From: Alphaproteobacteria bacterium
Lineage (GTDB): Bacteria > Pseudomonadota > Alphaproteobacteria > Rs-D84
Reading direction: 5' to 3'
Assembly: GCA_009783145.1 (NCBI GenBank)
Contig: WRHR01000001.1
Span: forward strand, 492 to 64,491
DNA: 64,000 nt
Part shown: positions 22,766 to 47,286 of the stretch, piece after piece
Layout: the number at the start of each line of letters is the position of its first letter
Position numbering within the stretch: position 1 is the stretch's first letter
Translations under genes and position numbers: made by a program
The notes under the pieces: model-generated
What the model saw: only the letters and a program-made list of their open reading frames with translations
Database searches by the model: none
Told to the model about the DNA's origin: nothing

Positions 22766-25700
22766 GTGAAGAGAGAAGGCCGGAAAATCAGCTTGGTCGC
22801 GTTAATTATCGCCGCGTTCGTCGCGCCGGCAATGGGCGCCGATATAAACATAGTTACCTCCAAGCAATACGTCGACGCCAGGTTCAACCCTGCCGACGCC
22901 GCGACCAAGATTGCGGTCGTGACGCTTGACGCCAATAATCGCCCCATCGTAAAGAATGATAAGAGCATTTCAGACATACTCGGCGGCATAACTACAACGA
23001 CCACCGGTGCCGGTAATGCGGTTACAAGCATTTCCGACGACGGCGCGGGCCATATCACTGCGACCAAGGGCTCGACTTTCTTGACCGGCGAAACCGACCC
23101 GTCCATCGATACCACTGTCATGGGCACTGCGGCGACTGCCGCGGGAACGACTGGCACCGCGGGCAAGGTTTATACGGTTCAGAAAAATGCGGCCGGGAAA
23201 GCAGTCGTCAGCGTGCCTTGGATGGATAACAATACGACTTACACCGGCACCGCGCCAATTGATGTAACCGGTACTGTCGTGTCTCATAATACTTCCGGCG
23301 TAACAGCCGCAGCATATGGGCCCAGCGCTCCCGCGACTTTGACATCTGGCGGAACGTTTACCGTTCCCAGCGTGACTGTAGACGCAAGAGGACATGTCAC
23401 TGCTGCTGCTGCGCAAACCATGACTATGCCAAGCATACCTGCGGCTGCAAATAATGCCGCGATTAAAATAGCATATGCGACGACCGGCATAACGGCTGCA
23501 GGGAACTTTGCGACCGTCAATCAAGCGGCCGATAGTACTTTGACCTTGCATACTGTGGCAAGCACCGGAAGCTATAACGATCTGGGCAACAAGCCGTCGA
23601 TACCAGCGGCTCAGGTTAATAGCGATTGGAATGCAGGCAGTGGCGTTGCGCAGATACTGAACAAGCCGACAATACCGACTATAACTATGAACAACGCTGG
23701 GACTACGACGCCGAGCTTTTATGCTCCGACAGCAGGAGGCACTTCGGGTAATGTTCTGAAATCCACCGGGGCGACCAGCGCTCCGACTTGGGGGACATTG
23801 TCTTACTCTGATATTACTGGCACCCTGCCGCAGGTGCAATCTGACTGGGCTCAGGCGACAACGGGTGCGGCTGATTATATTAAGAACAAACCGACGATAC
23901 CAAATACTGCTGGCACTGGCATCAACATAACCGGCGCGACCATAACTAATACCGCGCCGAATTTGCAAACGAAGAATATTGTCGGAGCGGCGACCGGCGC
24001 GACTGCGAATGCGGCCTCTACGAACGGCAATACGTATTTGAATGCTGTTGAGAACGGCGCTGTGGTCAGCACTCACAAAATCGCTGGAGGCGGCGCGACT
24101 ACTGTTACTTCCGACGCTTCCGGAAACATAACCATCAGCAGCACGGATACGCCTCCTACGACATATACCGGCACCGCGCCTATTAATGTGACCGGTACTG
24201 TTGTATCTCATAATACTTCCGGCGTTACGGCGGCAACTTATGGTCCCGGCGCGAATGCGACATTGGCTTCGGGCGGAACATTTACTGTTCCGGAAGTTAC
24301 GCTCAATGCGACAGGACATGCGACCGGCGCCGCGACAAGAACATTTACCTTGCCGACTATATTAACCCATCCGGCCGGCGCGAACGGCACTTTCGGACCG
24401 GCTGCGAACGCGACACTGACTTATGGCGGCACATTCACAGTTCCGCAAGTAACCGTCGATGCGAACGGGCATACGACAACAGGCGCGACAAGAACATTTA
24501 CCATGCCGGCCGCGCCGACCGCTTATACTCACCCCAACGACGGCGGGGCTGGAACGTACGGTCCGGGAGCAGATGCAACATTAGTAAGCGGCGGCACGTT
24601 TACAGTTCCACAAGTAACCGTCAACGCTGCCGGGCACACGACTTCGGGCGCGACCAGAACGTTTACTATGCCCTCGATTCCCGCGGCTGCAAACAATGCA
24701 GCGATTAATATTGCATATGGCGCAACCGCAACAGCTCCGGGACAATTTGCGACTGTTGATCAATCAGCTGCTACAACTCTTACTTTGCATACTGTGGCAA
24801 GAACAGGAAGTTATGATGACCTGACTAACAGGCCGACTATTACGGATACTAAGATCAAGGCGTTCAACGGCAACGTTACTGCAGGCACGGCGGCGGCATA
24901 TACTCTTGCGACCACATATCCTGCGTTCACGGCGGCGGATATGGCTGACGGAACGGTAGTGTTTGCGACTCCGAACCAAACGAACTCCGCCGGCGCGACG
25001 TTATCCGTTGGCGGGCAGACAGCGCGTCCGATTTGGAATTCCGCGACCGGCGCGACTGTGGCGGCAAGCGCTTTGGTTGCGAACATGGCTTACTCGTTCA
25101 CGTATGACGCCACGAATAACAGATGGCATGCAAAGCAGCTGGATACAAACACGGTTTATACTCATCCGACCGGTGGTGCGAACGCTACGCTTGGTCCGGG
25201 GGCGAATGCGACGTTGACATTCGGCGGCACATTTACCGTTCCGCAAGTAACTGTCGATGCGAGCGGGCACACGACTTCTGGCGCGACAAGAACATTCACT
25301 ATGCCTGCGACGCCGACGGCTACGGGCACTGCGGGCGGCGATTTGACCGGAACTTATCCTAACCCGACTTTGACCACGACTGGCGCGGCTGCCGGAACTT
25401 ACGGCATTACGGCGGATGCGTCCGGATCCGGAGCAAGCTTTAAAGTTCCGAAATTCACTGTCGATACCAAGGGTCGTTTGAGCATGGCGGGAGAGAATAC
25501 CGTCACTATGCCGACGACAACGACTTATGCCGGCACCGCGCCAATTACCGTAAGCGGAAGCAGCATAACTCATGACGACTCCGGCGTAACGGCCGCAGCA
25601 TACGGGCCCAGCGCGCCCGCGACCTTGACATCCGGCGGAACGTTTACGATTCCGTCAGTTACCGTTAATGCAAAGGGCCACGTCACGGCGGCAGCAACTC

Positions 25701-28700
25701 AGACCATGACCATGCCTACGATACCGGCGGCGTTCACTCATCCGGCCGGCGCGAACGGCACATTCGGTCCGGCTGCGAATGCGACTTTGACTTATGGCGG
25801 CACATTTACAGTTCCGCAGGTAACAGTTGATGCGAATGGGCATACGACCACCGGCGCGACCAGAACATTCACTATGCCGGCGATTTACACTCATCCCAAT
25901 GACGGCGGAGCTGGAACATACGGTCCGGGCGCGGATGCTACTTTGGCAAGCGGCGGCACATTCACGGTTCCGTATGTAACGGTCAATGCGGCCGGTCATA
26001 CGACCGCCGGCGGAGTCAGAACATTTACCATGCCGACTTTATCGCCGAACTTGCAGACAAAAAATATCGTCGGCGCGACAACGGGGGCAACCGCGAACGC
26101 GGCTTCTACGAACGGCAACACATATTTGAACGCCGTTGAGAACGGCGCAGTGGTAAGCACTCACAAAATCGCGGGCAGCGGCGCGACTACCGTCATATCG
26201 GATGCGTCTGGCAATATAACTATCAACAGTCCCGCCGCCACGACATATACCGGAACTGCGCCGATTACCGTAAGCGGAAGCAGCATCACTCATGACAACT
26301 CCACCGTCACGGCTGGAAATTACGGTCCGGCGGCGAATGCGACGTTGACTTCCGGGGGAACATTTACAGTGCCGTATATCTCCGTCGACGCGAAGGGCCA
26401 TACAATCACAGGCACGGCGACAAGAACGTTTACGATGCCGACTATTACGGATACTAAGATCAAGGCGTTCAACGGGAATGTTACCGCGGGCACGGCGGCG
26501 GCTTACACTCTGGCAACTACATACCCGTCGTTTACGGCGGCAGATATGGCTGACGGAACGGTTGTGTTCGCAACTGTGAACCAGACGAACTCCGCAGGTG
26601 CGACGCTGGCTGTTGGCGGACAGACTGCAAGGCCGATTTTCAATACTGCGACTGGGGCTGCTGTGGCGGCGAGCGCGCTGATAGCGAACACGGCTTACTC
26701 GTTCACGTATGACGCCACGAATAACAGATGGCATGCCAAGCAGCTTGATACGAATACGTTAACGCGGGTTAATCTGAACAACGCGGGATTGAACAGCGGC
26801 GACATTACGGCGTTCTATGCTCCGACCGGGGGCGGCACGTCAGGCAACGTTCTGAAATCCACCGGGGCGACCAGTGCTCCGACTTGGGGGACTTTGAGCA
26901 CCAGCGACATCACCGATATAAATACATATGTTACGACGAACGCGGCCAAATCATTCAACGGGGCAACTACTACCTTGGCGACTAACGCTTACTCGCTCGC
27001 GGCAACGCAGCCGACGTTTGCGGCGGGGAATTTGGTCGCAGGCGCGGTGGTGTTCGCTACATTGAACGCGACGAATCCGTCGGCTGCTCCGACTTTGAAT
27101 GTGAATTCTACCGGCGCGAAGACCATCATGCTGAACGGCGCGGCGACGGGGGCGAGCGCTTTGGTTGCGAATGTCGCCTACTCATTCACTTACGACGGCA
27201 CGAACTGGAGCGCAAAGCAGCTTGATACGAATACGTTAACGCGGGTTAATCTGAACAACGCGGGATTGAACAGCGGAGATATTACGGCGTTCTATGCTCC
27301 GACCGGGGGCGGCACATCTGGCAATGTCTTGAAATCCACCGGAGCAACCAGTGCGCCGACTTGGGGGACGTTGTCTTATTCGGATATAACTGGAACTGCT
27401 CCGGACACCAAGATTAAGGCGTTTAATGGGAACCTTACCGCAGGCACGGCGGCGGCTTACACTCTGGCGACCACATATCCGACGTTTACAGCGGCGGATA
27501 TGGCTGACGGAACGGTTGTGTTCGCTACTGTGAACCAGATGAACTCCGCCAGTGCGACATTGTCTGTTGGCGGACAGACCGCGAGGCCGATTTTCCATAC
27601 TGAGACTGGCGCGGCCGTGAATGCGGGCTCATTGGGGACGTACAGGGCACATTCATTCACTTACGATGGCACGAACAACAGATGGTACGCAAAGCAACTT
27701 GATACGTACGAACATTCCGCATCAGGCAATCCTGGGCAATACGGTCCGACTTCCGGCGGAACATTGGCCTTCGGCGGCACATTTACCGTTCCATATATAG
27801 AGGGAAATGATCAAGGACATGTCATTGATTCTGGGGAAGTTACATTTACTCTGCCGGCGGCGCCGACTGTCACTGAAACCGATCCGCTGTTCAACGCCCT
27901 TGACGGGACAGCTGGGGCGACCACCGGGACTGCCCCGACATACCTTCTTACCACCGCCGCTGCAAAGAAGATAACTCTGACGACCGGCGCGCGCGTCATT
28001 ACGAAGATACATGCCGCCGCAACGGCCGCAGCCACTTTGAATGTAACCTCGAACAGTGTCGCTCTGGGGGCAAAGGCCATCTTTGTGAACGGTGCGGCGG
28101 TCAGCTCTACCAATCCGTTGAAAGCGAACGCGGTTTACGAATTCATATATGACGGGACTCAGTGGCAAGCGATTGGCACGGATACTATTCCGGATTTGAG
28201 CACAGTTGTTCCGACATACGAAACCGATCCGAAGTTCAACTACTTCGACGGCACGATTAGCGGAATGGCGCCGAGCTATACTCTTACCACGTCAAAAGTC
28301 ATACCTTCGCCATTGGCGGCTGGTGCCCGCGTGGTTGCAAAAATCCAAGGAACCGCAACATCTGCCGCAACTTTGACCGTTATTGCGAATGGCGTCAATC
28401 TCACTGCAAAGAACATATTTGTAAACGGCGCTGCAATCAGCTCGACCAATCCGTTGAAAGGCGCTGTTTACGAGTTCATCTATGATGGAACCCAATGGCA
28501 GATTATTGGCGCGATTCAAGATGTTGCAACAAATGAAGCCGACCCGAGGTTCTTCTTCTACGATGGGCAGACCGGCGGAACCGCGCCGAATTATACTCTT
28601 ACAACGACAAAGATCGTGCCCACCATGGTATCGGGCCCAGGCGCGCGCTTGGTCGTGAAATTTCATGCCGGCACGACATCCGCCGCGGCTTTGAACTTAA

Positions 28701-29293
28701 CCAGCGGAGTTAAACTCCTCGGCCAATATCCGATATTTGTGAACGCCGCCGCGGTAAGTCCGTCCAATCCGCTGAATGCCGCAGTTTACGAGCTCATCTT
28801 CGACGGCACTCAATGGCAGGCAATCGGTTCCGGCAGCGGCGGAGGCATATCTGCCGCGACGACGACTAAACTGGGCGGCGGAAAATTATTCTTTAATCCT
28901 TATCCTGGTATAGATCTGGGCGCAACAGAGACCGATTGTCTTGTGGACGAGACAGGGATGAAGGGTGAATGTCGTGCTTATCCGATCCAGCTTAATGACA
29001 CCGACGACAAAATGTATGTTGCAGTTCCGGATGCGTACACAGTAGTTAATAACGAATTTTATAACAACATACTTCCAAGCATTCCTGTCGCCACCATTGA
29101 ATACAGCGCGGGCAACGGAGGTTCGAACGGTATGATTCCAAAGATACCGTATGCCTGCCGCGCGGGACAGAATCCAAAGGTTACCTGCATGCTCGGATAT
29201 GGCGAATTTACCAGCAACGGCGCGAACGGCACGGGCGTTGATGCCGCCGGCGGATCCGGCACCGGATTCTATTGGGAAAAAGTCACACGTTGA
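22766..29293 (+). CDS. Giant repetitive secreted protein (2175 aa, GTG start). It carries more than 15 tandem repeats of about 45 aa (YGPxANATLTxGGTFTVPQVTVDANGHTTxGATRTFTMP) and C-terminal repeats of about 80 aa (...AKxIFVNGAAxSSTNPLKxAVYEFIYDGTQWQ).
   Basis: Single 6.5-kb ORF with a signal peptide and highly periodic Thr/Gly/Ala-rich repeats. Shadow ORFs on both strands are rejected. Confidence 0.7.
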   Translation: MKREGRKISLVALIIAAFVAPAMGADINIVTSKQYVDARFNPADAATKIAVVTLDANNRPIVKNDKSISDILGGITTTTTGAGNAVTSISDDGAGHITATKGSTFLTGETDPSIDTTVMGTAATAAGTTGTAGKVYTVQKNAAGKAVVSVPWMDNNTTYTGTAPIDVTGTVVSHNTSGVTAAAYGPSAPATLTSGGTFTVPSVTVDARGHVTAAAAQTMTMPSIPAAANNAAIKIAYATTGITAAGNFATVNQAADSTLTLHTVASTGSYNDLGNKPSIPAAQVNSDWNAGSGVAQILNKPTIPTITMNNAGTTTPSFYAPTAGGTSGNVLKSTGATSAPTWGTLSYSDITGTLPQVQSDWAQATTGAADYIKNKPTIPNTAGTGINITGATITNTAPNLQTKNIVGAATGATANAASTNGNTYLNAVENGAVVSTHKIAGGGATTVTSDASGNITISSTDTPPTTYTGTAPINVTGTVVSHNTSGVTAATYGPGANATLASGGTFTVPEVTLNATGHATGAATRTFTLPTILTHPAGANGTFGPAANATLTYGGTFTVPQVTVDANGHTTTGATRTFTMPAAPTAYTHPNDGGAGTYGPGADATLVSGGTFTVPQVTVNAAGHTTSGATRTFTMPSIPAAANNAAINIAYGATATAPGQFATVDQSAATTLTLHTVARTGSYDDLTNRPTITDTKIKAFNGNVTAGTAAAYTLATTYPAFTAADMADGTVVFATPNQTNSAGATLSVGGQTARPIWNSATGATVAASALVANMAYSFTYDATNNRWHAKQLDTNTVYTHPTGGANATLGPGANATLTFGGTFTVPQVTVDASGHTTSGATRTFTMPATPTATGTAGGDLTGTYPNPTLTTTGAAAGTYGITADASGSGASFKVPKFTVDTKGRLSMAGENTVTMPTTTTYAGTAPITVSGSSITHDDSGVTAAAYGPSAPATLTSGGTFTIPSVTVNAKGHVTAAATQTMTMPTIPAAFTHPAGANGTFGPAANATLTYGGTFTVPQVTVDANGHTTTGATRTFTMPAIYTHPNDGGAGTYGPGADATLASGGTFTVPYVTVNAAGHTTAGGVRTFTMPTLSPNLQTKNIVGATTGATANAASTNGNTYLNAVENGAVVSTHKIAGSGATTVISDASGNITINSPAATTYTGTAPITVSGSSITHDNSTVTAGNYGPAANATLTSGGTFTVPYISVDAKGHTITGTATRTFTMPTITDTKIKAFNGNVTAGTAAAYTLATTYPSFTAADMADGTVVFATVNQTNSAGATLAVGGQTARPIFNTATGAAVAASALIANTAYSFTYDATNNRWHAKQLDTNTLTRVNLNNAGLNSGDITAFYAPTGGGTSGNVLKSTGATSAPTWGTLSTSDITDINTYVTTNAAKSFNGATTTLATNAYSLAATQPTFAAGNLVAGAVVFATLNATNPSAAPTLNVNSTGAKTIMLNGAATGASALVANVAYSFTYDGTNWSAKQLDTNTLTRVNLNNAGLNSGDITAFYAPTGGGTSGNVLKSTGATSAPTWGTLSYSDITGTAPDTKIKAFNGNLTAGTAAAYTLATTYPTFTAADMADGTVVFATVNQMNSASATLSVGGQTARPIFHTETGAAVNAGSLGTYRAHSFTYDGTNNRWYAKQLDTYEHSASGNPGQYGPTSGGTLAFGGTFTVPYIEGNDQGHVIDSGEVTFTLPAAPTVTETDPLFNALDGTAGATTGTAPTYLLTTAAAKKITLTTGARVITKIHAAATAAATLNVTSNSVALGAKAIFVNGAAVSSTNPLKANAVYEFIYDGTQWQAIGTDTIPDLSTVVPTYETDPKFNYFDGTISGMAPSYTLTTSKVIPSPLAAGARVVAKIQGTATSAATLTVIANGVNLTAKNIFVNGAAISSTNPLKGAVYEFIYDGTQWQIIGAIQDVATNEADPRFFFYDGQTGGTAPNYTLTTTKIVPTMVSGPGARLVVKFHAGTTSAAALNLTSGVKLLGQYPIFVNAAAVSPSNPLNAAVYELIFDGTQWQAIGSGSGGGISAATTTKLGGGKLFFNPYPGIDLGATETDCLVDETGMKGECRAYPIQLNDTDDKMYVAVPDAYTVVNNEFYNNILPSIPVATIEYSAGNGGSNGMIPKIPYACRAGQNPKVTCMLGYGEFTSNGANGTGVDAAGGSGTGFYWEKVTR

Positions 29294-32465: not shown

Positions 32466-33464
32466 TTATTCTGTCTTAAACTCCAAAAACTTCGCGACGT
32501 TCGCCATAAAGTTCGGCATCTGCGCGCGAATTGTCACTATCTTTTTCGTTACCGGATGCCTCAGCGACAGCTTGTGCGCGAACAGGAACAATTTGTTGGA
32601 ATCCAGCATGGAATCCAAGATTGTGTTATCTGTGCTCTGTGCTCTGTGCTCTGTGCTCTGGCGATACAAAGTATCGCCGACTATCGGGGCGCCCAGCGCG
32701 AATGCCGAATGCAGGCGCAACTGGTGCGTGCGTCCGGTCTGCGGCGCAAACCGCACCCAGGTCAGGACTCCGGGCAGTCGTCCCAAGACCTCGTACTTCG
32801 TAATCGCGCGCTGCGGGCGAGTGCCACTCAAGCGCTGAAATTCATCCGCCTCATCCGACGACAGGACTTTTCCTTTCGCCATAAAGGTATCCAAAACGCC
32901 GCGGCCGACCGGAATGCTTCCGCGCAGCAGCGCCAGGTATTCTTTTGCCGCGGACTTGTCCCTGAACTGGGCCGCCAGGTGCTGAGCGGCGCGCTGATTC
33001 TTGGCGAAGACTATCACTCCGCTTGTCTCGCGATCCAGGCGGTGCACGGGAAGAATCGTGTCATAAGGGAACAATGCCGCCGCCATTTTATCAAGCGATT
33101 TTTTTATCCCGGTTCCGCCCTGCACCGCCAGACCCGCTGGCTTGTCGAACGCGACGAAGTCCGGATCGTCATGGATTATCAGCTTGCGTAATTTTTCCAG
33201 GTCGGCCAGAGAAAATTTAATTCCGGATTCCTGGCTTTTCGCTTGAGGGGACTGCTGCAGCGCGGCAAGAAAAGGCGGAATGCGCAAGTCGTCGCCCGAA
33301 TGCAGAATTTCATCGCCATGGCACCTCGCGGAGTTCACGCGCATCTGGCCTGATCGGCACAGCTTGTGAAATTCTCCGTCAGAAACTCGCGGATAGTGCC
33401 TCTTGACCCATCTTTTCAGACGGATTCCGTCTTCAGTGGAAGAGATTACAGTTTGTGTGCGCAT
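32466..33464 (-). CDS. RluA-family 23S rRNA pseudouridine synthase (RluC/RluD-like) with an S4 domain
   Basis: HRLDRETSGVIVFAKN catalytic motif and an S4-like N-terminus. The tandem heptamer GTGCTCT x4 in the 3' region is translated as HRAQSTEHRAQST. Confidence 0.85.
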   Translation of the reverse strand: MRTQTVISSTEDGIRLKRWVKRHYPRVSDGEFHKLCRSGQMRVNSARCHGDEILHSGDDLRIPPFLAALQQSPQAKSQESGIKFSLADLEKLRKLIIHDDPDFVAFDKPAGLAVQGGTGIKKSLDKMAAALFPYDTILPVHRLDRETSGVIVFAKNQRAAQHLAAQFRDKSAAKEYLALLRGSIPVGRGVLDTFMAKGKVLSSDEADEFQRLSGTRPQRAITKYEVLGRLPGVLTWVRFAPQTGRTHQLRLHSAFALGAPIVGDTLYRQSTEHRAQSTDNTILDSMLDSNKLFLFAHKLSLRHPVTKKIVTIRAQMPNFMANVAKFLEFKTE

Positions 33465-33473
33465 AGTTAAGGT

Positions 33474-33553
33474 AGAAAGTAGGAAGTAGGAAGTAGGAGG
33501 TGGGATATCTGCATTCTTTACTTCCTACCTCCTACTTTCTACTTCCTACCTGT
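33474..33553. repeat. Hairpin with tandem-heptamer arms (AGGAAGT)n / (ACTTCCT)n
   Basis: Seen directly between the pilin stop and the rluC start. Confidence 0.65.
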
Positions 33554-33554
33554 T

Positions 33555-34085
33555 TTATTCCCCATATACTATATGAACCGCGTTCTGCCCTGCGGGCCCC
33601 TTGCAATCGTTCGGGATGGCGGTCGCGCCGCCGGACCGGCCGTTGGACGCCTGGTACCCGACAGAATCAGACCAAGCCTTTACTCTGAAGTACTCGCAGT
33701 CGGACGGGTTAAGGCCGTCTATGGTCAGAATGAACTGGCGCAAGTCCGACGGATTCACGGACAGCAAGTATTTTCCGCCGTACGGATTCTTGTCCGACAT
33801 GCCGATGGCGGCGAATATGGTACCGTTGTCCAGATTTGAAAAGTCGTCGTATTCGCCCAGGATGGTGCGAACGCCGGTGACTATCTGCGCAACTTCGTCC
33901 TGCAGCGCGGTGCGCTTTTGGCTGCGCATGGCGGCGGTAATCATAGTAATAGCGCCGACGGTTATAACGCCCATTATGGCCAGAACGCCCAGCATTTCAA
34001 TCATGCTTCTGCCAGATTCGCTGTCAGAAGTCGAAACGCGAAACGCGAAACGCGAAACGCGTAGTGAATCATATAATTTTCTCAT
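33555..34085 (-). CDS. Type IV prepilin/pseudopilin with a long leader of about 27 aa (type IVb-like)
   Basis: ...SESG|RSMIEMLGVLAIMGVITVGAI has the class III signal, with Gly at -1, Glu at +5 and a hydrophobic helix. The leader residues RVSRFAFRVS come from the heptamer arms of the element at 34020-34150. Confidence 0.65.
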   Translation of the reverse strand: MRKLYDSLRVSRFAFRVSTSDSESGRSMIEMLGVLAIMGVITVGAITMITAAMRSQKRTALQDEVAQIVTGVRTILGEYDDFSNLDNGTIFAAIGMSDKNPYGGKYLLSVNPSDLRQFILTIDGLNPSDCEYFRVKAWSDSVGYQASNGRSGGATAIPNDCKGPAGQNAVHIVYGE

Positions 34086-34150
34086 ATCAAACCTTTTTGT
34101 TGCGCCAACCCACGCGTCGCGCATCTCGCGTTTCGCGTTTCGATTTGCTT
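34020..34150. repeat. Heptamer-arm palindromic element (GAAACGC x4 ... CGCGTTTCG x2) spanning the pilin start codon
   Basis: Seen directly. Confidence 0.75.
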
Positions 34151-34179
34151 TTTACTTACAAGATTGTATCATAAAAGCG

Positions 34180-35706
34180 ATGATTATTCAATTTAGCAAT
34201 CTTATAGAACATAGTCCTAAATCGCCGGGCGTATATATGATGTACGACGCGACTGGGGTCTTGTTATATGTGGGCAAGGCAAAGAACTTGAACGCGCGCC
34301 TGCGCCAGTATCTGGACATATCGCAGCTGGAATGGCACAAAAGAGTAATGCGCAGCCTGGTCGCGCGCGTGGAATGGCAAAGATGCGCGACGGAATCCGA
34401 GGCGCTGGTGCTGGAGCAAGAGCTGATAAAAACCCAAAAGCCGAAATATAATATAATGCTGACGGACGGGAAGATGTACCCGATGCTGGCGCTGACGAAG
34501 CACCAATTTCCTCGGCTGGTGAAGTTCCGCGGCAAGATATCGCAAAAGAAAGACGTGTTCGGGCCGTACCCGTCGGCGGGCGCCCTGAACGACGCGATAA
34601 AGACGATACAGAAAGTATGCCAGGTGCGCACCTGCACGGACGGGTTTATGAGAAACCGGGCGCGCCCTTGCCTGTTGCATCAGATCGGGCGGTGCAGCGC
34701 GCCATGCGCGCTTTGCGCGCAGAGCATAGATTATGATAATAATGTAAAACTCGCGCGGCGTATCTTATCCGGCGACATTCAATCGGCGACGAAAGAATTA
34801 TCAAAGGAAATGCAGGCGGCGTCGGACAGGATGGACTTTGAAAAAGCGGCCGAGCTGCGCGATAAGATATCCGCGTTAAGCGCGACCGCGACCCGCGGCC
34901 GTATGCGGGCACAAAAGGCTGACGACTTTTCCGAATCGTTCGCGGCGCTGGAAAAATGGCTGAGGATGAAAATTGAAAAAGCGTTCGTGTTCGACAACTC
35001 GCACTTGTTCGGGAAAAGCCCGGTCGGCGCGATGATAGCCTTCGACCGCGCGGGCTTTGTGAAATCGGAATATCGGCATTTCAAATTAAAGGATAACGCG
35101 CGCGCCGGGAACGACATCGCGATGATGGAAGAATTCCTTTTGCGCTTCGCGCAAAAGGACGAAACGCGAAACGCGAAACGCGAAACGCGGGATTCAGAAA
35201 ATATGAATAATACTGTCCATTATAATGGACAATGCACGTCGTTATACGACCTGCGCGTCTCGCGTCTCGCGTCTCGCGTCTCGCTTATCATCGTGGACGG
35301 CGGGAAAGCGCAATGGAATATCGCAAAGAAAACACTTGGGGACGCGGCGGCAATACTTGGCGTGACCAAGGGCATCGTGCGCGACGGGGACGAGCATTTT
35401 ATTATGCCGGACGGCGACGAAGACCGCGGCTTGGCCAAAAATTCGCCTGTGTTTTTATTTCTGCGGCGCGTGCGGGACGAAGCGCATAGGTTTGCGATTT
35501 CGTTCCATCGCCGCAGCCGGGGCAAGTCCGCGATAACCAGCGCATTGGACGAGATAGAGGGCATCGGCGCGGCGCGCAAGAAAGCACTGCTGCATCACTT
35601 TGGTTCCGTAAGGCAAATTGCGGATTCGACTGCGGCGGATATAGCGCGCGCGCCCGGGATATCGAAAACAATCGCGGAAAAGATTTACTTGCACTTTCAT
35701 CCTTAA
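34180..35706 (+). CDS. uvrC: Excinuclease ABC subunit C, carrying a 47-aa in-frame repeat-element insertion
   Basis: GIY-YIG N-domain (GVYMMYDATGVLLYVGKAKNLNARLRQY), UvrB-interaction region, RNaseH-like domain (IIVDGGKAQ) and C-terminal HhH (GIGAARKKALLHHFGS). The insertion ETRNAKRETRDSENMNNTVHYNGQCTSLYDLRVSRLASRVSL lies between ...LRFAQKD and IIVDGG. Confidence 0.9.
   Translation: MIIQFSNLIEHSPKSPGVYMMYDATGVLLYVGKAKNLNARLRQYLDISQLEWHKRVMRSLVARVEWQRCATESEALVLEQELIKTQKPKYNIMLTDGKMYPMLALTKHQFPRLVKFRGKISQKKDVFGPYPSAGALNDAIKTIQKVCQVRTCTDGFMRNRARPCLLHQIGRCSAPCALCAQSIDYDNNVKLARRILSGDIQSATKELSKEMQAASDRMDFEKAAELRDKISALSATATRGRMRAQKADDFSESFAALEKWLRMKIEKAFVFDNSHLFGKSPVGAMIAFDRAGFVKSEYRHFKLKDNARAGNDIAMMEEFLLRFAQKDETRNAKRETRDSENMNNTVHYNGQCTSLYDLRVSRLASRVSLIIVDGGKAQWNIAKKTLGDAAAILGVTKGIVRDGDEHFIMPDGDEDRGLAKNSPVFLFLRRVRDEAHRFAISFHRRSRGKSAITSALDEIEGIGAARKKALLHHFGSVRQIADSTAADIARAPGISKTIAEKIYLHFHP
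35150..35290. repeat. Composite element inside uvrC: arms GAAACGC x4 / GCGTCTC x4 around the core AATAATACTGTCCATTATAATGGACAATG
   Basis: Seen directly. It sits in frame within the CDS. Confidence 0.85.
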
Positions 35707-35737
35707 TCTTTATAATCGGGCGGAAAAATCGTGAAAG

Positions 35738-35840
35738 TGCAGGTGCAGGTGTATTAGAGTATATGAATAATATTGTCCTTTATAAAGGACAACCTATATT
35801 GTTGCACTGATTCACCTGCACTTGCACCTGCACGATTTGC
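35738..35840. repeat. Composite element in the efp leader: arms GTGCAGGTGCAGGTG / CACCTGCACTTGCACCTGCAC around the core AATAATATTGTCCTTTATAAAGGACAA
   Basis: Seen directly. Confidence 0.8.
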
Positions 35841-35856
35841 GACGAAGGAGCAACAA

Positions 35857-36423
35857 ATGGCAAGCTATACGGCAAACGATATGCGCGTGGGATGGGCGAT
35901 TTCGCATAACGGGAAAAGATATTCGGTGACAAGCATTACAAAGGTAAAGCCGGGCAAAGGCGGCGCGTTCGTCCAGGCGGACTTGCGCGATATCGACACG
36001 GGGAACAAGGGCGGCGACCGCTGGCGGTCCGAGGACAAGGTTGAAAAGCTGATGGTGGAAGACGTGGAGTGCCAGTTCCTGTACGGCGACGGGACGGACA
36101 GCTATTTTATGAACTTGTCGGATTACGAGCAATTTACGATGCCGTCTGAGGCGCTGGGGGAACAAGTGAAGTTCCTGCAGCCCGAGATGAAGGTCAAGGC
36201 TAATTTTGTGGAAGGCCACCCGATATCGATAACTCTGCCGAAAACGGTTATCGCGACGGTGGAAGAGACCGAGCCTGCGTTAAAAGGCCAGACTGCGGCG
36301 GGCGGGGGCAAGCCGGCCATATTGGACAACGGCATCCGCATAACAGTTCCTGTATTCGTGGAGATGGGCGAAAAAGTTGTGGTTAATACCGAAACTTTGG
36401 AGTACGTGGAGAGAGCGAAATAG
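35857..36423 (+). CDS. efp: Elongation factor P
   Basis: MASYTANDMRVGWAISHNGKRYSVTS...KPGKGGAFV...KVV. RBS gaaggag. Followed by a terminator. Confidence 0.9.
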   Translation: MASYTANDMRVGWAISHNGKRYSVTSITKVKPGKGGAFVQADLRDIDTGNKGGDRWRSEDKVEKLMVEDVECQFLYGDGTDSYFMNLSDYEQFTMPSEALGEQVKFLQPEMKVKANFVEGHPISITLPKTVIATVEETEPALKGQTAAGGGKPAILDNGIRITVPVFVEMGEKVVVNTETLEYVERAK

Positions 36424-36495: not shown

Positions 36496-36993
36496 GTCAC
36501 TCCTGCGTAGGCAGGAGTGGGCCCAGACAGTGCAAGCGTAAGCGAGCCTATAAACCTTTCACTATTATTTCCCCACAATCCAGCTTTCTAAAAAATTCTT
36601 CAGTCATTCCTTCTTTGGGCAAGATTTCATCCAATTCCGCCGCCAAATCCTTCCATTCCGGATTCATCGTTTCAATTAATCTATACTTCCAAGCCCGTTT
36701 CCATTTTTTAAGCGCTTTTTCTCTATCAATCGCCTTATCAACATATTGAAACCATTCGTAATAACCAAGTTTCTTCGTATTGTGTTCTTGCGAGTTTCCT
36801 TTTATCAATCCCAGTTTATGCTCCATAACACGACGTTCTAAATCGTTGGTCATACCGATGTACGTTGCCTGAGCGCGTTCATTGAACATGATATAAACCC
36901 AAAAATTGTATTCTTTGAATTCTTTCATAAAAAGAGAATAGCGAAGTTCGGAAATATTTTCAAGACCCACTCCTGCCTACGCAGGAGTGACAA
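36496..36993. mobile_element. Candidate mobile cassette: a GIY-YIG gene bounded by perfect 27-bp terminal inverted repeats TGTCACTCCTGCGTAGGCAGGAGTGGG. Each repeat is itself a family-B hairpin.
   Basis: The left TIR lies at 36496-36522. The right TIR at 36967-36993 is its exact reverse complement. The gene's start and stop codons abut the repeats. Confidence 0.45.
36548..36928 (-). CDS. Small GIY-YIG nuclease-family protein (URI-domain type)
   Basis: NFWVYIMFNERAQATYIGMTNDLERRVMEH...NPEWKDL. Paralogue of 17627..17935. Confidence 0.7.
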   Translation of the reverse strand: MKEFKEYNFWVYIMFNERAQATYIGMTNDLERRVMEHKLGLIKGNSQEHNTKKLGYYEWFQYVDKAIDREKALKKWKRAWKYRLIETMNPEWKDLAAELDEILPKEGMTEEFFRKLDCGEIIVKGL

Positions 36994-37024
36994 AAATTTT
37001 TCTTACGAAAAATTTTCTAAAATA

Positions 37025-37062
37025 AAAAATCGCCGCGATTGCGGCGATTTTTCATTCCGGTT
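37025..37062. terminator. Bidirectional terminator with the stem ATCGCCGCGATTGCGGCGAT, identical to 14032-14051. It lies just 3' of the DGR target gene.
   Basis: Seen directly. Confidence 0.7.
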
Positions 37063-37075
37063 ACTGTTTTTTCGT

Positions 37076-37810
37076 TTACCGTTTTCTCGCGTTCAGTTCT
37101 TTTACACGTTGCTCGACGAACCGGCGAACGCCCGCCCAGAGATCCGCGCCCTCGTTCAGGTTGCGCGACGAGTGGTCCAGCGCGATCTGCGCGCAATCCG
37201 AACGGGCCCTGTTCCAAGCGCCCAGCGAAACATCCTCATCTTTATCCTCAAACAATCTTGCTATCTCGCCTGTCTTCGTGTTATACAAATAATACATCGC
37301 TACTGCGCCGTCCGATTCCCCCAGCTTTGTCTTCTTTACTTTCTTTGCGTATGTGCTTTCCTTGATACCAATCCCAGGGCCGGCGGTTATTCCGCACAGT
37401 TTCCAATCTGAATCTTTCAGCTCCGGCTGATTATCCACGAACTTCTTCGCACGCTTCATTTCCGCCTGGTCTTTATATATGGTATGGTTATTGTCGCCAT
37501 ACGCCGTGTTCAGGTAGAAATTATCCGCATTGTTGCTGTATACTCCATCCCCACCGTTAATGATATCGTACGCATAGCCCACAAGTTGGCTGTTCTGGTT
37601 GATGATCGTCGTCATCTTTGCCATTGTTTCTTTCAGATCAAGGGGTTTTACCTGGGATTCCAACCGCTCTAACCTTGCGGCCAATTCTTTGTTTTGAATT
37701 TCCAAATTTTTGACTTTAATGCTCAAGCTTTTATGACCGCGAAAAAAGAACTCGTAAACTTTATTTTCCGCAATCTGCTGCTTCAACGTTTTCGGCTTTT
37801 CATTAGACAT
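37076..37810 (-). CDS. DGR variable (target) protein: coiled-coil N-terminus, with the C-terminal VR encoding an Asn-rich CLec/FGE-sulfatase-like ligand-binding tip
   Basis: The C-terminal 40 codons (LGAWNRARSDCAQIALDHSSRNLNEGADLWAGVRRFVEQ) form a 120-bp VR matching the TR at 38055-38174. All differences sit at TR adenines. Confidence 0.8.
   Translation of the reverse strand: MSNEKPKTLKQQIAENKVYEFFFRGHKSLSIKVKNLEIQNKELAARLERLESQVKPLDLKETMAKMTTIINQNSQLVGYAYDIINGGDGVYSNNADNFYLNTAYGDNNHTIYKDQAEMKRAKKFVDNQPELKDSDWKLCGITAGPGIGIKESTYAKKVKKTKLGESDGAVAMYYLYNTKTGEIARLFEDKDEDVSLGAWNRARSDCAQIALDHSSRNLNEGADLWAGVRRFVEQRVKELNARKR
37113..37232 (-). repeat. DGR variable repeat (VR), 120 bp, at the 3' end of the target gene
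   Basis: Reverse complement is 110/120 identical to the TR. The 10 mismatches all correspond to A in the TR (A to C/G/T). Confidence 0.85.
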
Positions 37811-38054
37811 TTTTATATCCTTTGGTTGTTTGCCCGCGAATTGTACCGCAACTTATTATTTTGTCAAGCAATTTTTGCCGTTTATTTTTGTCATTCCCAA
37901 AAATTCGCGCAAATTCCCCATTTTGACGGCTTTAATAATAAACATCTATAGAATTGTTTGTCAAATCGCAAAATATATCGCTGGCGCGAATCGGACTAAA
38001 TTCCCAGACTGGGCCACAGGCCGTATATCGCAAAAAACCGTTGGTTTGCCGCCG

Positions 38055-38174
38055 TGTTTCGCTGGGCGATTGGAACAGGAACCGTTCGAATTGCGCGCAG
38101 AACGCGCTGAACCACTCGTCGAACAACCTGAACGAGGGCACGAATCTCTGGGCGGGCGTTCGCCGGTTCGTCGA
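38055..38174 (+). repeat. DGR template repeat (TR), 120 bp and AAC-rich, in sense orientation with the RT
   Basis: TGTTTCGCTGGGCGATTGGAACAGGAACCGTTCGAATTGCGCGCAGAACGCGCTGAACCACTCGTCGAACAACCTGAACGAGGGCACGAATCTCTGGGCGGGCGTTCGCCGGTTCGTCGA. It encodes GDWNRNRSNCAQNALNHSSNNLNEGTNLWAGVRRF. Confidence 0.85.
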
Positions 38175-38509
38175 TACTTGTTGTCAAAAGTTTAGCCAAC
38201 CCGGGGGACGCGGGGTTTCCCCGCCATAGCCGACACACAAGGCTGGATATGCGACCTTCTTGGGGCCAGGCCCCGGGAAAACACGATAACCGGGAAAGCC
38301 GCCACCCTTCGCGCTGGCGCGCTACGGGTGGCAGGCCCCCTGTGGTGCAATAACGCAAACGGCCGCGGCTTTGATTCATTTTTACAAAATCGCAAAGTGA
38401 TTTTGTCATTGCGGTTCCGGCCTTCGCCGGAATGACAAACCGGGTCCGCAATGACAATTTTTTGTTTTACAAAAAATTGCAAAAATAAAAAACAAAAAAA
38501 GAACCAACT

Positions 38510-38809
38510 ATGACCGATGAAATCCATTCCTTTTCTGACTTCGCCGACAGCCGCCCTGCCCTGGACGGCAGAAAGCGCCGCATCGACGAAGTCCTGAACA
38601 AGCCCATCACCGTTCGCGGGCACAAAATCATCGCTTCGAAAAAAAACGCGGGCGAAATGTGCCTGCACTTGCAATTCGAAATGGACGGCGAGCTGTGCAT
38701 ACTCTTCACCGGCAGCGCCGTTCTTATCGACCAATGCGAAAAGTACGCCGATAAAATCCCGTTCCGCACCAGCATCGTCCGCATAGATAAATATTTTTCG
38801 TTCTCGTGA
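38510..38809 (+). CDS. DGR-associated accessory ORF (99 aa), translationally coupled to the RT. It is not obviously Avd-like.
   Basis: Its stop overlaps the RT ATG (ATGA). It lies between the TR and the RT, where accessory genes usually sit. The sequence looks beta-rich rather than a helical bundle. Confidence 0.4.
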   Translation: MTDEIHSFSDFADSRPALDGRKRRIDEVLNKPITVRGHKIIASKKNAGEMCLHLQFEMDGELCILFTGSAVLIDQCEKYADKIPFRTSIVRIDKYFSFS

Positions 38810-39822
38810 CTTCGCTTTGGTCTGATTTTATATCCCATGAAAATTTCGCGCTTGCGCTGAAAAATGCAACCCGCGGGCGCAAGACCAAGCCTTCTATCGC
38901 GCATTTCTTGAAAAACGCGGACGAGAATTTGGAAAACCTGCGCCAGCTTGTCATCGCCGGAGGGTTCAAGACCTCGCCCTATCGCACCATGGAAATCACG
39001 GATCCCAAGCGCCGCACAATATACATTCTTCCTTTCTGCCCCGACCGATTGCTTCATCACGCCTTGATGAATATTCTTGCCCCGATATGGGAGGCCGGAT
39101 TCATCCGAGATTCTTATGCCTGCATCACGGGACGCGGCCTGCACTCCGCCAGCCGGCGCACCATGCAATTCGTACGCCGGAATCAATACGTGCTGAAATG
39201 CGACATCAGAAAATTCTATCCCAGCATCGATCATAATATAATGTATGAAATCGTGAAGAAGTCTCTTCCGCCCGGCAACGAGAATATCCTGGCCATCCTG
39301 CATGACATTATATACTCAACTGCAGGCGGCAAGAACCTTCCCATAGGAAACCTCTGCAGCCAATGGATGGGAAACCTGTACCTGCACGAAATGGATATAT
39401 ATATAAAGCATGAATTGCGCGTGCGAGATTATTTGCGATACAGCGACGACTTTTGCCTGTTTTCAAACGACAATGCCCAACTGCGCGGGTGGCGCGACAA
39501 AATCCGAGAATTTCTGGCCGCGCGATTGGGGCTGATATTTTCCAAGGCCGAGATTTTTCCAGTGTCGAACGGCCTGGACTTTGTCGGATACCGGCATTTC
39601 AAGGATTTCGTCCTTTTGCGCAAGCGCACGTTGAAAAAGATAAAGTCGCGCATGCTGGAAATCGGCGAGATGAAAAATATAGCACCCGCAAACGCGGAGC
39701 GCATTCGCGGCCAGGTTGCCGCGGCGCACGGCTGGCTGAAATTCGCGTGCTCTTATAACCTGCGCAAAAAGCTGCGGTTCGAAACACTAAAGAAAAAAGT
39801 CGGGATTATTGTTTCCAGTTGA
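38806..39822 (+). CDS. Diversity-generating retroelement reverse transcriptase
   Basis: RT motifs 1-5 are present: RRTIYILPFCPDRLLHHAL, SYACITGRGLHSA, YVLKCDIRKFYPSIDH, the DGR-specific LPIGNLCSQWMGNLYLHEMD, and YLRYSDDFCLF (YxDD). Confidence 0.9.
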   Translation: MTSLWSDFISHENFALALKNATRGRKTKPSIAHFLKNADENLENLRQLVIAGGFKTSPYRTMEITDPKRRTIYILPFCPDRLLHHALMNILAPIWEAGFIRDSYACITGRGLHSASRRTMQFVRRNQYVLKCDIRKFYPSIDHNIMYEIVKKSLPPGNENILAILHDIIYSTAGGKNLPIGNLCSQWMGNLYLHEMDIYIKHELRVRDYLRYSDDFCLFSNDNAQLRGWRDKIREFLAARLGLIFSKAEIFPVSNGLDFVGYRHFKDFVLLRKRTLKKIKSRMLEIGEMKNIAPANAERIRGQVAAAHGWLKFACSYNLRKKLRFETLKKKVGIIVSS

Positions 39823-39870
39823 CAAATCATATTTATTTGCTAACTTGTTCGAAAACAAAGGATCAAACAG

Positions 39871-40563
39871 ATGCAATTAACATACGGTCCGTTCCAGGCG
39901 CTGGAACAGCAGGAATTCAAACAAGGGAACGGGAGCTTTGAAATCGAGGCTTTAAGATTCGCCAGATTGTTGCACAAACTGTCATTCGAAAGAAAAATCA
40001 ATTTCAACCACATTTTCAAGTTCTTATCCGCCAGGCCCGATAACGAATATTGGTTCGCCGACAACAACGGCAACCCTTTCGCCGGCATCATCGCCTTGGA
40101 ATACCACACCAAGGCCTTGGCGGACTCGCGATTCGAAATGCACAAGAAGTATGACGATCTGCGATTGGTTTTATCCGGAGAAACAACCATACTTCTTTTG
40201 GATAAAAGCCTGCTTAAATGGGGCAAATTCAATCAGGCGGACGATGTGGCCTTATCCGAAGAAAATTGCTTGGAAGCGCTTTGGCCGCGCAGCTTGCAAT
40301 TCGAGAAAATTCACACGTCGCCCGCGAATCAAAAGATTGACTCTGTCAAGCTTACGGCAAACGGGCTGAACGTTGGCGCGGAAGCGGGCTTGTTATACCA
40401 TATCCCCGCCGGGATGCCTCATGCGCCGGGAATGAATCCGGATAAGCTCGGCGCCTTTGATAAAGTAAGAGAACTGGTCGTAAAATACGACGCGCGGAAA
40501 AGAACTACTCATGACTGGCAAGACAAAGAAATAGGTTATTTTATCTCGGAAGTGAAACGTTAA
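39871..40563 (+). CDS. Hypothetical protein (230 aa) immediately downstream of the DGR RT
   Basis: Clean ORF with a terminator at 40565-40592. No family recognised. Confidence 0.4.
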   Translation: MQLTYGPFQALEQQEFKQGNGSFEIEALRFARLLHKLSFERKINFNHIFKFLSARPDNEYWFADNNGNPFAGIIALEYHTKALADSRFEMHKKYDDLRLVLSGETTILLLDKSLLKWGKFNQADDVALSEENCLEALWPRSLQFEKIHTSPANQKIDSVKLTANGLNVGAEAGLLYHIPAGMPHAPGMNPDKLGAFDKVRELVVKYDARKRTTHDWQDKEIGYFISEVKR

Positions 40564-44040: not shown

Positions 44041-44068
44041 AAAACCGCCCAACGGGCGGTTTTTTATT
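44041..44068. terminator. Bidirectional terminator AAAAACCGCCCAACGGGCGGTTTTTT between pgsA and dnaA
   Basis: Seen directly. Confidence 0.75.
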
Positions 44069-45356: not shown

Positions 45357-45563
45357 AACAAGTCTCCTTTCCTTCCCCGAAAGAGTTATTTGTCCCGCTA
45401 ATTAGCGATTTGTGTTTCGTTGTGTTACGAATGGAATTTATATCAAAAAAACCGAATAGCAAATTTTTTTAACGTTTTTTTGAAAAATTTTTTTCTTGTG
45501 TCCGATTCGGTTTTTTGCCGGTTTTCCGCGCATTGTATAGACACTGTATTGACATCCGACGGA

Positions 45564-46580
45564 TTATATTTTCACATATCCCGTATCCAGTTTTTTAATT
45601 CTTCCAGACAGTTCCAAGGCGACCAATTCGCTCTTGATTTCGGATATCGGTTTTTTGACAAGTTCGGTCAATACAGACTCGGATACGGGAACTGTTCCTA
45701 TCTTATCAAGAACGTCGTTATCCGTCATTTGCGATTTATGTCTTATGCTTTCAGTTTTCTCGATATCGTCGAAAAAATCGGAAATTCCCATGCAAAGCCT
45801 CGCCTTGCCATCCTTTATCAACTGATTCGGACCGCGAGAGCGTTCGTCAGACGGATGCCCTGGAATCGCAAAGACCGAGCGCCCGTATTCCAGCGCAAAT
45901 CCGGCGGTCGCCATGCTGCCTGATTTCAAATCCGCCTCGCCCAATATCAGTTTTTCGGAAATTGCCGCGATTCCCCTATTTCGTCGAATAAAGTTGCTTG
46001 CGACCGGAACGGTGCCGACCGGCATTCTGCTTATTATCGCGCCTCGCTCGCATATATAGTGATACAGACGCTCGTTTTCAAGGGGCCAGATATAATCAAC
46101 TCCGCCGGCCAAGACCGCGATAGTTTGCTGGTCGCCTGCTGCGCGCAAAGCGCCGCTATGCGCGGCCGTATCCGTGCCCATTGCCATGCCGGATGCCACC
46201 GCATAGCCGTTTGATGCGAAAGCCTCCGCAAGTTCCGACATAAACCGCAGGCCGGCGGCGGTCGCGTTACGCGTGCCGACCATTGCGACGGCAGTCTTTG
46301 CCAAGGTCGCAAGATTCCCGCGCGCAGTGAAAATCGGCGGATGATTTTTTATCTCGCGAAATAACTTCGGATACTCTTCGCTGTCGTCGCATATATATGT
46401 CACGCCAATCCGGTGCGCCAAGTCCATCTCACGCGCTACCTGCTCAACCAGCGTTTGGTCGGTCAGCAAAGATTCGGCCGCCGCGGCCGCGGAGCCGAAT
46501 TGTTCTATAAGCTGCGCATATTTCACAGGTCCGATTCCCGGCGTCCTTAAGATTAAAAGCTTATGAAACAAATCAGACAT
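45564..46580 (-). CDS. dprA: DNA-processing protein DprA (Smf)
   Basis: Rossmann-like DprA core VGTRNATAAGLRFMSELAEAFASNGYAVASGMAMGTDTAAHSGAL. Confidence 0.85.
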   Translation of the reverse strand: MSDLFHKLLILRTPGIGPVKYAQLIEQFGSAAAAAESLLTDQTLVEQVAREMDLAHRIGVTYICDDSEEYPKLFREIKNHPPIFTARGNLATLAKTAVAMVGTRNATAAGLRFMSELAEAFASNGYAVASGMAMGTDTAAHSGALRAAGDQQTIAVLAGGVDYIWPLENERLYHYICERGAIISRMPVGTVPVASNFIRRNRGIAAISEKLILGEADLKSGSMATAGFALEYGRSVFAIPGHPSDERSRGPNQLIKDGKARLCMGISDFFDDIEKTESIRHKSQMTDNDVLDKIGTVPVSESVLTELVKKPISEIKSELVALELSGRIKKLDTGYVKI

Positions 46581-47223: not shown

Positions 47224-47286
47224 TTGCTTTTCTCCTTTGTTGAATATAGAATAGCACCGAACTTGCAACAAATAAAAGGACAAAAA

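Follow-up and report, generated by a model that had tools for sequence, protein, structure and literature searches.

A hairpin repeat with tandem-heptamer arms brackets the start codon of a type IV pilin-like gene in a termite-gut alphaproteobacterium

The repeat described here, a predicted hairpin whose arms are arrays of a 7-nt unit, surrounds the start codon of a type IV pilin-like gene in a 64-kb stretch of contig WRHR01000001.1 (the window; all coordinates are those of its plus strand), from a termite-gut alphaproteobacterium in a lineage of gut Alphaproteobacteria related to Candidatus Enterousia. Similar short tandem 7-nt arrays are found in the short tandemly repeated repetitive (STRR) heptamers of heterocystous cyanobacteria. 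Rickettsia palindromic elements (RPEs), which Ogata et al. are said to have described in 2000, are reportedly 100–150 bp long, have a conserved consensus and lie in frame in coding genes, including housekeeping genes; to our knowledge, no RPE brackets a start codon and extends a prepilin leader. Polymerase slippage was proposed as the source of long simple-sequence repeats (SSRs) with heptanucleotide units (Mrazek et al. 2007, summarised in PMC4679880). TAACTGA direct repeats, found in Beggiatoaceae, cyanobacteria and Bacteroidetes, are located just upstream of start codons, in sets of 2–6 copies a few nucleotides away, where a role in translation was suggested, not shown (PMC4679880). The 7-bp repeats of Haemophilus are a case of SSR phase variation (PMC12721329). 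Candidatus Enterousia was placed in the order Rs-D84, with reduced genomes (PMC12306168).

The pilin locus is best read, with a probability of roughly 60%, as a tolerated repeat insertion at a permissive site around a native initiation region, which gives the mRNA a strong hairpin of unproven effect. The window arrays share with the heptanucleotide SSRs their tandem 7-nt units (the class is defined by units of 5–11 nt), their scattered distribution and a frequency far above chance, but differ from these and from STRRs in being mostly inverted pairs that form long hairpins, in having a near-constant length of ~30 nt and many different units, and in lying inside open reading frames (ORFs) despite a unit length that 3 does not divide. 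The TAACTGA repeats are the nearest analogue by position, but consist of one fixed heptamer and are nearly always direct (one indirect set in 170), whereas the window elements vary in unit, form inverted pairs and here place one arm inside coding sequence. With RPEs they have in common a small palindromic form, a reduced alphaproteobacterial host genome and the in-frame addition of peptide at permissive sites (10 aa in the pilin leader and 42 aa in uvrC, where the domains are intact); the arms of RPEs are, by contrast, not tandem heptamers. No account of heptamer-arm hairpins in Rs-D84 or Enterousia was found in the literature.

The pilin-like gene was taken from the ORF list (33555–34085, minus strand, 176 aa), and its product is 100% identical to NCBI MCL1891696.1. 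Read directly, the protein begins with the leader MRKLYDSLRVSRFAFRVSTSDSESG (codons 1–25, 34011–34085), continues after the predicted cleavage site with RSMIEMLGVLAIMGVITVGAITMITAAM, and has a mature part beginning RSMIEMLGVLAIMG. The leader is 25 aa long counting Gly-1 (codon 34013–34011), two fewer than in the first-pass annotation of this DNA. A class III signal is present as G25/RSMIE30 (the slash marks the cleavage site) followed by MLGVLAIMGVITVGAITMITAAM, with Gly and Glu at positions −1 and +5 and an N-terminal helix of ~20 residues that is hydrophobic, and cleavage of the long leader would yield a mature pilin starting at R26. The motif was aligned with homologues: G/RSM[IV]EMLGV was recognisable in 119 of the best 120 (598 in total), and G, R, S, M (+3) and E were invariant in a 27-sequence alignment. 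With a profile of the family, the best solved match was the type IVb pilin TcpA (8uhf, E = 2.8e-6, spanning helix and globular domain), and PilE1 was matched at E = 1.4e-3; a Pfam search with the pilin gave no match, and NCBIfam only weak pilin/pseudopilin matches, all far under cut-offs.

The reading frame is closed upstream by an in-frame TAA (34154–34152), and from 34085 down to the codon for Gly-1 the frame contains neither ATG nor GTG nor TTG, which disposes of the alternative downstream start that had been suggested. Since there is no such start, the downstream arm of the element must be translated for a cleavable prepilin to be made. A second possible start further upstream (ATG 34124, within the upstream arm) would give an ORF of 189 aa and has no Shine–Dalgarno (SD) sequence. 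One gene caller took this start, NCBI takes 34085, and the only other entry in the 90% protein cluster of the pilin is the 189-aa call of the same sequence.

The downstream arm (34032–34061, minus-strand gene, 30 nt) reads (GAAACGC)x4.3 on the plus strand and (GCGTTTC)x4.3 in the mRNA sense, and corresponds in frame to codons 9–18, RVSRFAFRVS. Being 30 nt long, free of stops and starting at a codon boundary, it is translated into these residues, which include three arginines; the whole leader stays net positive. The 50-nt loop (34062–34111) holds an SD-like AAAGG (34096–34092), a 6-nt spacing, the ATG (34085–34083) and codons 1–8. The upstream arm, TCGAAACGCGAAACGCGAGATGCGCGACGCG (34113–34143), lies in the 5′ untranslated region (UTR), contains the SD-less ATG 34124 and is a discrete 30–31-nt block that is missing in the related loci L001, L085 and L086. 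On the plus strand it reads CGCGTTTCGCGTTTCG at 34127–34142, followed by two degenerate units back to 34112. The structure noted in the first-pass annotation is thus confirmed as to the GAAACGC array, the position of the ATG in the loop and the leader residues encoded by the arm; the second arm, given there as one CGCGTTTCG, actually has about 2.3 perfect units and two degenerate ones. The best inverted repeat has 35-nt arms (34028–34062 and 34112–34146) that are 86% complementary, with 49 nt between them. The fold predicted for RNA of the pilin 5′ region has −73.5 kcal/mol (z = −6.5); in the predicted ensemble the SD is mostly unpaired (P = 0.8), and the AUG lies in a weak inner AU-rich helix. 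The loop gives the AUG 26 nt upstream and 21 nt downstream, roughly one 30S footprint. A terminator scan found no intrinsic terminator at the element, and no U-tract follows the stem. Membership in a known RNA family was rejected, as an Rfam scan of 33300–36000 returned only sub-threshold, miRNA-like hairpin matches.

Homologous loci (L numbers) were compared with the window copy of the pilin region (WIN). A candidate sigma-70-like promoter of the pilin gene lies upstream of the upstream arm (34163–34191, minus strand), with −35 TTGAAT at 34191–34186, a 17-nt spacer and a TG-extended −10 TACAAT at 34168–34163. All five loci that were aligned have an identical −10 core, TTATGATA, and the −35 TTGAAT is present in WIN, in L002 and in the array-free L001, L005, L085, L086 and L107 (TTGCAT in L003/L004). 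Because the motif is located outside the element and is conserved in relatives without the arm, the element is not the source of the promoter. Transcription would start near 34156, so that the whole element would be transcribed. The pilin −35 overlaps the start codon of the divergent uvrC gene, and the two gene starts are about 35–47 nt apart in array-free relatives; the uvrC mRNA may be near-leaderless, arising from a back-to-back promoter in the palindromic TTATGATACAAT region.

The upstream arm separates AGCAAA(T) from TGGG; the two motifs adjoin directly in L001, L085 and L086, where the start region reads AAAAGCAAATGGGGAT(T)AAAATG. Aligned so that the ATGs coincide, the loop and the start region of the array-free L087 agree at 22 of 28 nt, a score equalled in 4 of 500 shuffles; the N-termini compared are MRKLYDSL (window) and MKRIYSFT (L087). 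Since the loop matches a native start, an imported 5′ end is unlikely. Removal of the arm from L002 leaves MKFYN..EQSG, near the MKFINQESG of L001, and removal of the 30-nt arm from the window leaves a 15-aa leader like MKRIYSFTRQQSG of P0016 and L087. From these alignments, the start codon was probably not imported by the element, and the ancestral leader was short.

Of the 119 homologues in which the motif was recognisable, 49 have a leader of 6 aa (M[KR][QY]ESG), 30 one of 7–10 aa, 22 one of 11–16 aa and 18 one of at least 17 aa. Several of the longest reflect mis-called starts, and the 25 aa of the window is the longest credible leader; the nearest relatives of the window pilin have 9–13 aa. 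The gene order is conserved, with uvrC divergent from the pilin gene, which is followed by an rluC-like gene, asmA and DAC. The closest array-free relative, L001 (pilin 83%, UvrC 75.5%), has a uvrC–pilin gap of 47 nt and no array within 8.5 kb. In the vertebrate-gut genomes examined, the leader is short and heptamer arrays are essentially absent around the pilin gene, whereas termite-gut relatives have many such hairpins with units of their own, several with arrays in the pilin leader. The only other assembly found for this locus (L134, a European Nucleotide Archive contig) is identical to the window over 3570 nt and possibly derives from the same reads. L002, an independent contig from a different sample, has the same architecture at the pilin start: a GAAACGC-type hairpin as in the window (predicted −59.5 kcal/mol, z = −5.4), with SD AAGGAG, ATG and MKFYNT in the loop.

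The pilin element is one copy of a larger set. The 14-mer GAAACGCGAAACGC was matched 13 times in the window (at most one mismatch) against 0.09 expected, and period-7 arrays of at least 2.6 copies numbered 22, compared with 0–5 (mostly 0–2) per shuffle in 20 shuffles; arrays of other periods were at noise level, except for one hexamer pair. About 13 elements were recognised. Their plan is a tandem array of ~30 nt (7-nt unit, once 6-nt), a loop of 10–70 nt and an inverted array, with solo and non-complementary exceptions, and their units include GAAACGC/GAGACGC (five copies), AGTCGCT, ATTTACG, GTAGGAA, AATTAGC, CAGAGCA, ATAAAGA and GTGCAG. As 7 × 3 = 21, all three frames of a heptamer array give the same cyclic 7-aa peptide. 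Read from the units, only those that are stop-free on the coding strand occur within ORFs, and every unit that makes stops (AGTCGCT, GTAGGAA, AATTAGC and ATTTACG in reverse complement) is intergenic.

Several elements were found within genes. The GAGACGC/GAAACGC hairpin E2 (18815–18931) is in frame in the C-terminal part of an ftsE-like ABC ATPase, and the GAAACGC-family hairpin E8 (35160–35284) is in frame in uvrC, where, relative to L001, it adds 42 aa to the UvrC linker (peptide ETRNAKRETR...RVSRLASRVS) while the flanking domains align. At this place in the UvrC linker, L003 carries RYSHHESQITNH, a degenerate insert that resembles an array, and UvrC of L002 has a different hairpin at another site. 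The solo array E5, (TCTGTGC)x4.6 at 32624–32660, lies within the rluC-like gene with a net gain of 5 aa over L001. The solo array E4, (ATAAAGA)x4.3 at 22521–22550, codes for GFFILYSLFFIG, the hydrophobic core of the TolB signal peptide. E9 (51050–51146) consists of two non-complementary arrays that flank the SD and ATG of a secretin gene, and its downstream array (51050–51081) encodes the signal-peptide core SVLCALCSVLW, ahead of the lipobox-like LGGC of the secretin. Repeat DNA serves as functional signal-peptide sequence in TolB and the secretin.

Of the remaining elements, E1 (14567–14675), an (AGTCGCT)/(CTAGCGA) hairpin with a core palindrome, lies in the 5′ UTR of a lipoprotein gene; E3 (19838–19905), an (ATTTACG)/(AAATCGT) hairpin, fills one stop-to-start gap exactly; and E6 (33469–33549), a (GTAGGAA)/(TACTTCC) hairpin, likewise occupies exactly the space from the stop of the pilin gene to the start of the rluC-like gene. 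The GAAACGC-family hairpins E10 (52425–52507) and E11 (56830–56934) are in a divergent intergenic region and at the 5′ end of gene 56812–57825, respectively. E12 (61053–61187), an (AATTAGC)/(TAATTGC) hairpin with a core palindrome, lies between convergent genes, and E13 (35731–35833), with hexamer arms (GTGCAG)/(CACCTG) around a core palindrome, is inserted in the efp 5′ UTR. The core palindrome, TTGTCCWTTATAAWGGACAA (20 bp, with a central perfect TATAAT), occupies the loops of four hairpins with unrelated arms (14620–14639 in E1, 35213–35232 in E8, 35773–35792 in E13 and 61103–61122 in E12; 4 matches against 0 expected), and two of its copies have the left flank TATGAATAATA in common. It looks like a second small element nesting in hairpin loops or a nucleus around which arms form; it was rejected as a part of the pilin element, where it is absent. 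Another small palindromic repeat, GTTCCCGCCTTCGCGGGAATGAC with variants, has three copies in the window (6106, 32018 and 38425), of which that at 32018 is in frame in asmA as the peptide PAFAGMT.

All five GAAACGC-family hairpins (18815–18931, 34028–34146, 35160–35284, 52425–52507 and 56830–56934) have the GAAACGC arm on the left and a GCGTCTC-type arm on the right, and the differences between their arms give A·C mismatches on the plus strand and G·U pairs on the minus strand, whatever the strand of the gene. At the pilin gene, three of the four arm differences are wobble-compatible in the pilin sense. This was rejected as a sign of selection on the pilin mRNA, because all five copies fold better as minus-strand RNA on either gene strand. 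The shared orientation suggests a strand-specific origin, by single-strand transposition or linked to replication, although five of five is statistically weak. A nearby replication origin might account for it: dnaA and dnaN are in the window, yet the cumulative GC skew shows no turn.

Inverted short repeats with a spacer, a hairpin fold and many copies are also characteristic of REPINs (doublets of repetitive extragenic palindromic, REP, sequences; PMC3116915) and of miniature inverted-repeat transposable elements (MITEs). Terminal inverted repeats are present at the pilin element (the 35-nt arms), and the single orientation of the five GAAACGC copies would suit a single-strand mechanism. However, REPINs are extragenic and have a conserved REP of 20–40 bp and a REP-associated tyrosine transposase (RAYT), whereas the window elements have many units, several are intragenic, and no Y1 transposase is in the window. 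A Pfam scan of the 46 window ORFs for mobile-element genes found no transposase or RAYT domain. No direct repeat resembling a target-site duplication flanks the pilin element (E7), E8, E2, E11 or E13, several flanks extending the palindrome instead, and the loops of the five GAAACGC copies are unrelated, so that they have no shared interior. Identity with MITEs was rejected on the last two counts, and identity with REPINs for want of a conserved REP and of a RAYT in the window and because copies lie in genes. By this comparison, the element unites traits of heptanucleotide SSRs, REPIN/MITE-like doublets and RPE-like inserts.

Under the tolerated-insertion reading, the pilin gene would carry one copy of a genome-wide class of hairpin repeats with heptamer-array arms of ~30 nt. 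The arms would bracket the native start, one in the 5′ UTR just past the promoter and the other in leader codons. Prepilin peptidase would cut the leader at G/RSMIE; the mature pilin would be unchanged, for which reason the insertion would be tolerated, and the block in the 5′ UTR would be likewise cheap. The transcript would form a stem of about 30 bp with the ribosome-binding site in the 50-nt loop, and whatever this stem did to translation, to the stability of the mRNA or to its sensitivity to RNase III would be a by-product rather than the reason for the element. The insertion would then be neutral, although it may affect pilin output through RNase III, 5′-end stability or initiation rate. 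Tolerance alone, and not pilin regulation, can explain the copies that lie in uvrC, in the ftsE-like and rluC-like genes, in the signal peptides of TolB and the secretin, in stop-to-start gaps and in the efp 5′ UTR.

Two routes to the arms may be considered. In one, a foldback element with a target preference would transpose; in the other, slippage would make an array, and replication would then briefly switch template and place the reverse complement of the array close by. Creation of hairpins by template switching is a known process, and the two-step route fits the locus, as it would leave a discrete 30-nt inverted block and a native loop. Copy-and-paste mobility is indicated by the arm units, left/right asymmetry and orientation shared by the five GAAACGC copies, and by the variant first unit CGTGAC common to E10, E11 and L002. 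Generation in situ is indicated by the unrelated loops, the native loop at the pilin gene, the solo arrays, the different units that occupy the site after the pilin stop in different lineages and the lack of target-site duplications.

Several observations weigh against a merely tolerated insertion. The match between the loop and L087 is short (p about 0.01). L002, whose UvrC (65%) makes it more distant than the array-free L001, shares the hairpin, the heptamer and the position to about 3 nt, which implies either that insertions occurred independently at one site or that the hairpin was long retained with its arms nearly perfect; both would hint at site preference or selection. At least four more relatives have heptamer arrays in the same leader: L003 and L139 with solo arrays, (CGAATCA)x4 and (CACGATT)x3 respectively; L140 with (GTGCAG)n in the 5′ UTR and a non-complementary (ACGAATC)n in the leader; and L135 with an array interrupted by two copies of the small palindromic repeat of GTTCCCGCCTTCGCGGGAATGAC type. 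Pairs of arrays also flank the SD and ATG of the window secretin and the L140 pilin, although these are non-complementary. Hairpins with differing units recur right after the pilin stop in four lineages (window 33469–33549, GTAGGAA; L086 1972–2049, AACTAAC; L002 1472–1521, GGTTTGA; L004 about 3490–3600, the 8-mer ACAAAGTG), a site at which array-free relatives have the rluC-like gene directly adjoining or overlapping the pilin gene. These post-stop hairpins could be a recurrent 3′ stabiliser or attenuator, or mark an insertion hot spot, and the recurrences at pilus-gene boundaries may reflect more than permissiveness.

A selected cis-regulatory hairpin of the pilin mRNA, acting as a stabiliser or RNase III substrate and presenting or occluding the ribosome-binding site so as to tune pilin synthesis, has to be weighed first among the alternatives; we consider it unlikely. 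The very stable predicted fold and its counterpart in L002, the placement of SD and AUG in a loop of about the size of a 30S footprint, and the repeated occurrence, in several lineages, of arrays or hairpins of different sequence at both the 5′ and the 3′ end of the pilin gene would all agree with it, and a precedent, an RNase III-targeted 5′ UTR element together with heptameric repeats, is known from Haemophilus (PMC12721329). Equally strong hairpins of the family, however, are found inside uvrC and the ftsE-like gene, where such regulation is implausible and where ribosomes evidently cope with them, and the strand asymmetry is independent of the direction of transcription. The solo arrays of L003 and L139 and the non-complementary pairs of L140 and the window secretin further show that base pairing is not the conserved feature. 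The closest array-free relatives and all vertebrate-gut members examined do without arrays at the pilin start.

A role of the leader tract as a phase-variation switch, in which slipped-strand mispairing would add or remove one or two 7-nt units, shift the frame and so turn the pilin off, appears quite improbable. CTCTT repeats in the signal-peptide region of Neisseria opa genes are a precedent for such switching, and the pilin tract likewise has a unit length that 3 does not divide and occupies early codons of a gene for a surface structure; both systems, like that of Haemophilus, place such repeats in 5′ coding or 5′ UTR sequence. A gain or loss of one unit would meet a TGA within about 10 codons, the secretin signal-peptide codons hold an array too, and the repeats of heptamer-rich genomes have been ascribed to polymerase slippage (Mrazek 2007, via PMC4679880). 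Against this, the tract has just 4.3 units, and in-frame arrays occur in the housekeeping genes uvrC, rluC-like, ftsE-like and tolB, which could not be switched on and off without harm. In P0014 and P0019 (proteins 89% identical), the orthologous leader arrays are equal in length and differ by point changes only. No variant in tract length was found: L134 is identical to the window, and a metagenome scan gave no copy from another sample, its best matches having 77–83% identity.

The two origins offered in the first-pass annotation, a new promoter and 5′ end supplied by the element or a long type IVb leader colonised by it, are very improbable, so that of its interpretation as a whole only the structural part is upheld. 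In their favour, the best solved relative, TcpA, is of type IVb, with a 25-aa leader in Vibrio cholerae; the window also contains a TcpQ-like gene and a secretin gene; and the SD AAAGG differs from the GGGG of L001 and L086. The promoter motif, however, lies outside the element and is kept in relatives that lack it, the loop resembles a native start region, and the modal leader of the family has 6 aa, ten of the extra residues of the window leader being those of the arm; without these ten, the leader resembles those of P0016 and L087. An invertible switch, in which the arms would be recombination sites for flipping the 50-bp SD/ATG segment, is scarcely credible: although inverted repeats do flank the pilin start signals and inversion switches classically act on pilin genes, the stretch that would flip measures just 50 bp, no recombinase gene is nearby (the sole integrase-like ORF, 8431–9468, is 25 kb away), the same arms lie in frame inside uvrC, and the window, L134 and L002 show a single orientation only.

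A type IVb-like pilus is plausible from the gene content. The window contains a secretin gene (49534–51102) and a TcpQ-like gene (51144–52355); these are clustered with dnaA and DprA (44064–52355), about 10–18 kb from the pilin gene beside uvrC. The Pfam scan of the 46 ORFs detected no prepilin peptidase, ATPase or platform gene. With type IVb pilins such as TcpA, the system shares the G(−1)/E(+5) signal, the TcpQ-like and secretin genes and a 25-aa leader, which is within the IVb range; it differs in that the family's own leader has 6 aa, as in type IVa pilins and pseudopilins, and in that the +1 residue is Arg, the long leader of the window being secondary and repeat-encoded. A TcpA-like pilin together with DprA suggests a competence-type pilus in a reduced genome, perhaps serving DNA uptake.

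Three further regions of the window were recorded. About 4 kb between efp and a thioredoxin-reductase-like gene (36548–40563) has no counterpart in L001 and holds a stand-alone 140-aa GIY-YIG nuclease (36548–36970) and several ORFs without a Pfam match; it may be an inserted island. An ORF of 2175 aa (22766–29293) has no Pfam match and contains a 477-nt tandem repeat (26446–27706, 2.6 copies), and one of 667 aa (15141–17144) has a YadA-like anchor and a 45-nt repeat (15997–16102); both are probable surface adhesins.

As regards annotation, the long pilin leader is genuinely coding: its start is not mis-called, nor is the gene a pseudogene. Where RVSRFAF, ETRNAKR, ITNHESR or similar heptamer-derived peptides occur in these genomes, they flag repeat insertions rather than protein motifs. 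The locus is an instance of a small repeat absorbed into a part of a protein that is discarded, cleaved leaders and signal peptides having taken inserts in the pilin, the secretin and TolB. The pilin case itself is ordinary; what is unusual is the class of repeat and its recurrence at pilus-gene boundaries. This class, perhaps undescribed so far, consists of foldback hairpins whose arms are tandem heptamers of variable sequence, and it occurs in reduced genomes, which would be expected to contain little junk. A bolder proposal, which we consider unlikely, is that of an undescribed bacterial foldback class, so far found only in termite-gut members of the lineage, in which the arm sequence would be free while the 7-nt period, the ~30-nt length and the inverted pairing are kept, which would spread strand-specifically (by slippage and template switching, or by single-strand transposition), and which would land repeatedly at start and stop boundaries of pilus genes (pilin, secretin), acting there as RNA-level or phase-variable controls of the pilus. 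If the hairpins affect pilus expression or vary in length, they would offer a handle on the control of a likely DNA-uptake or adhesion pilus in uncultured gut epibionts.

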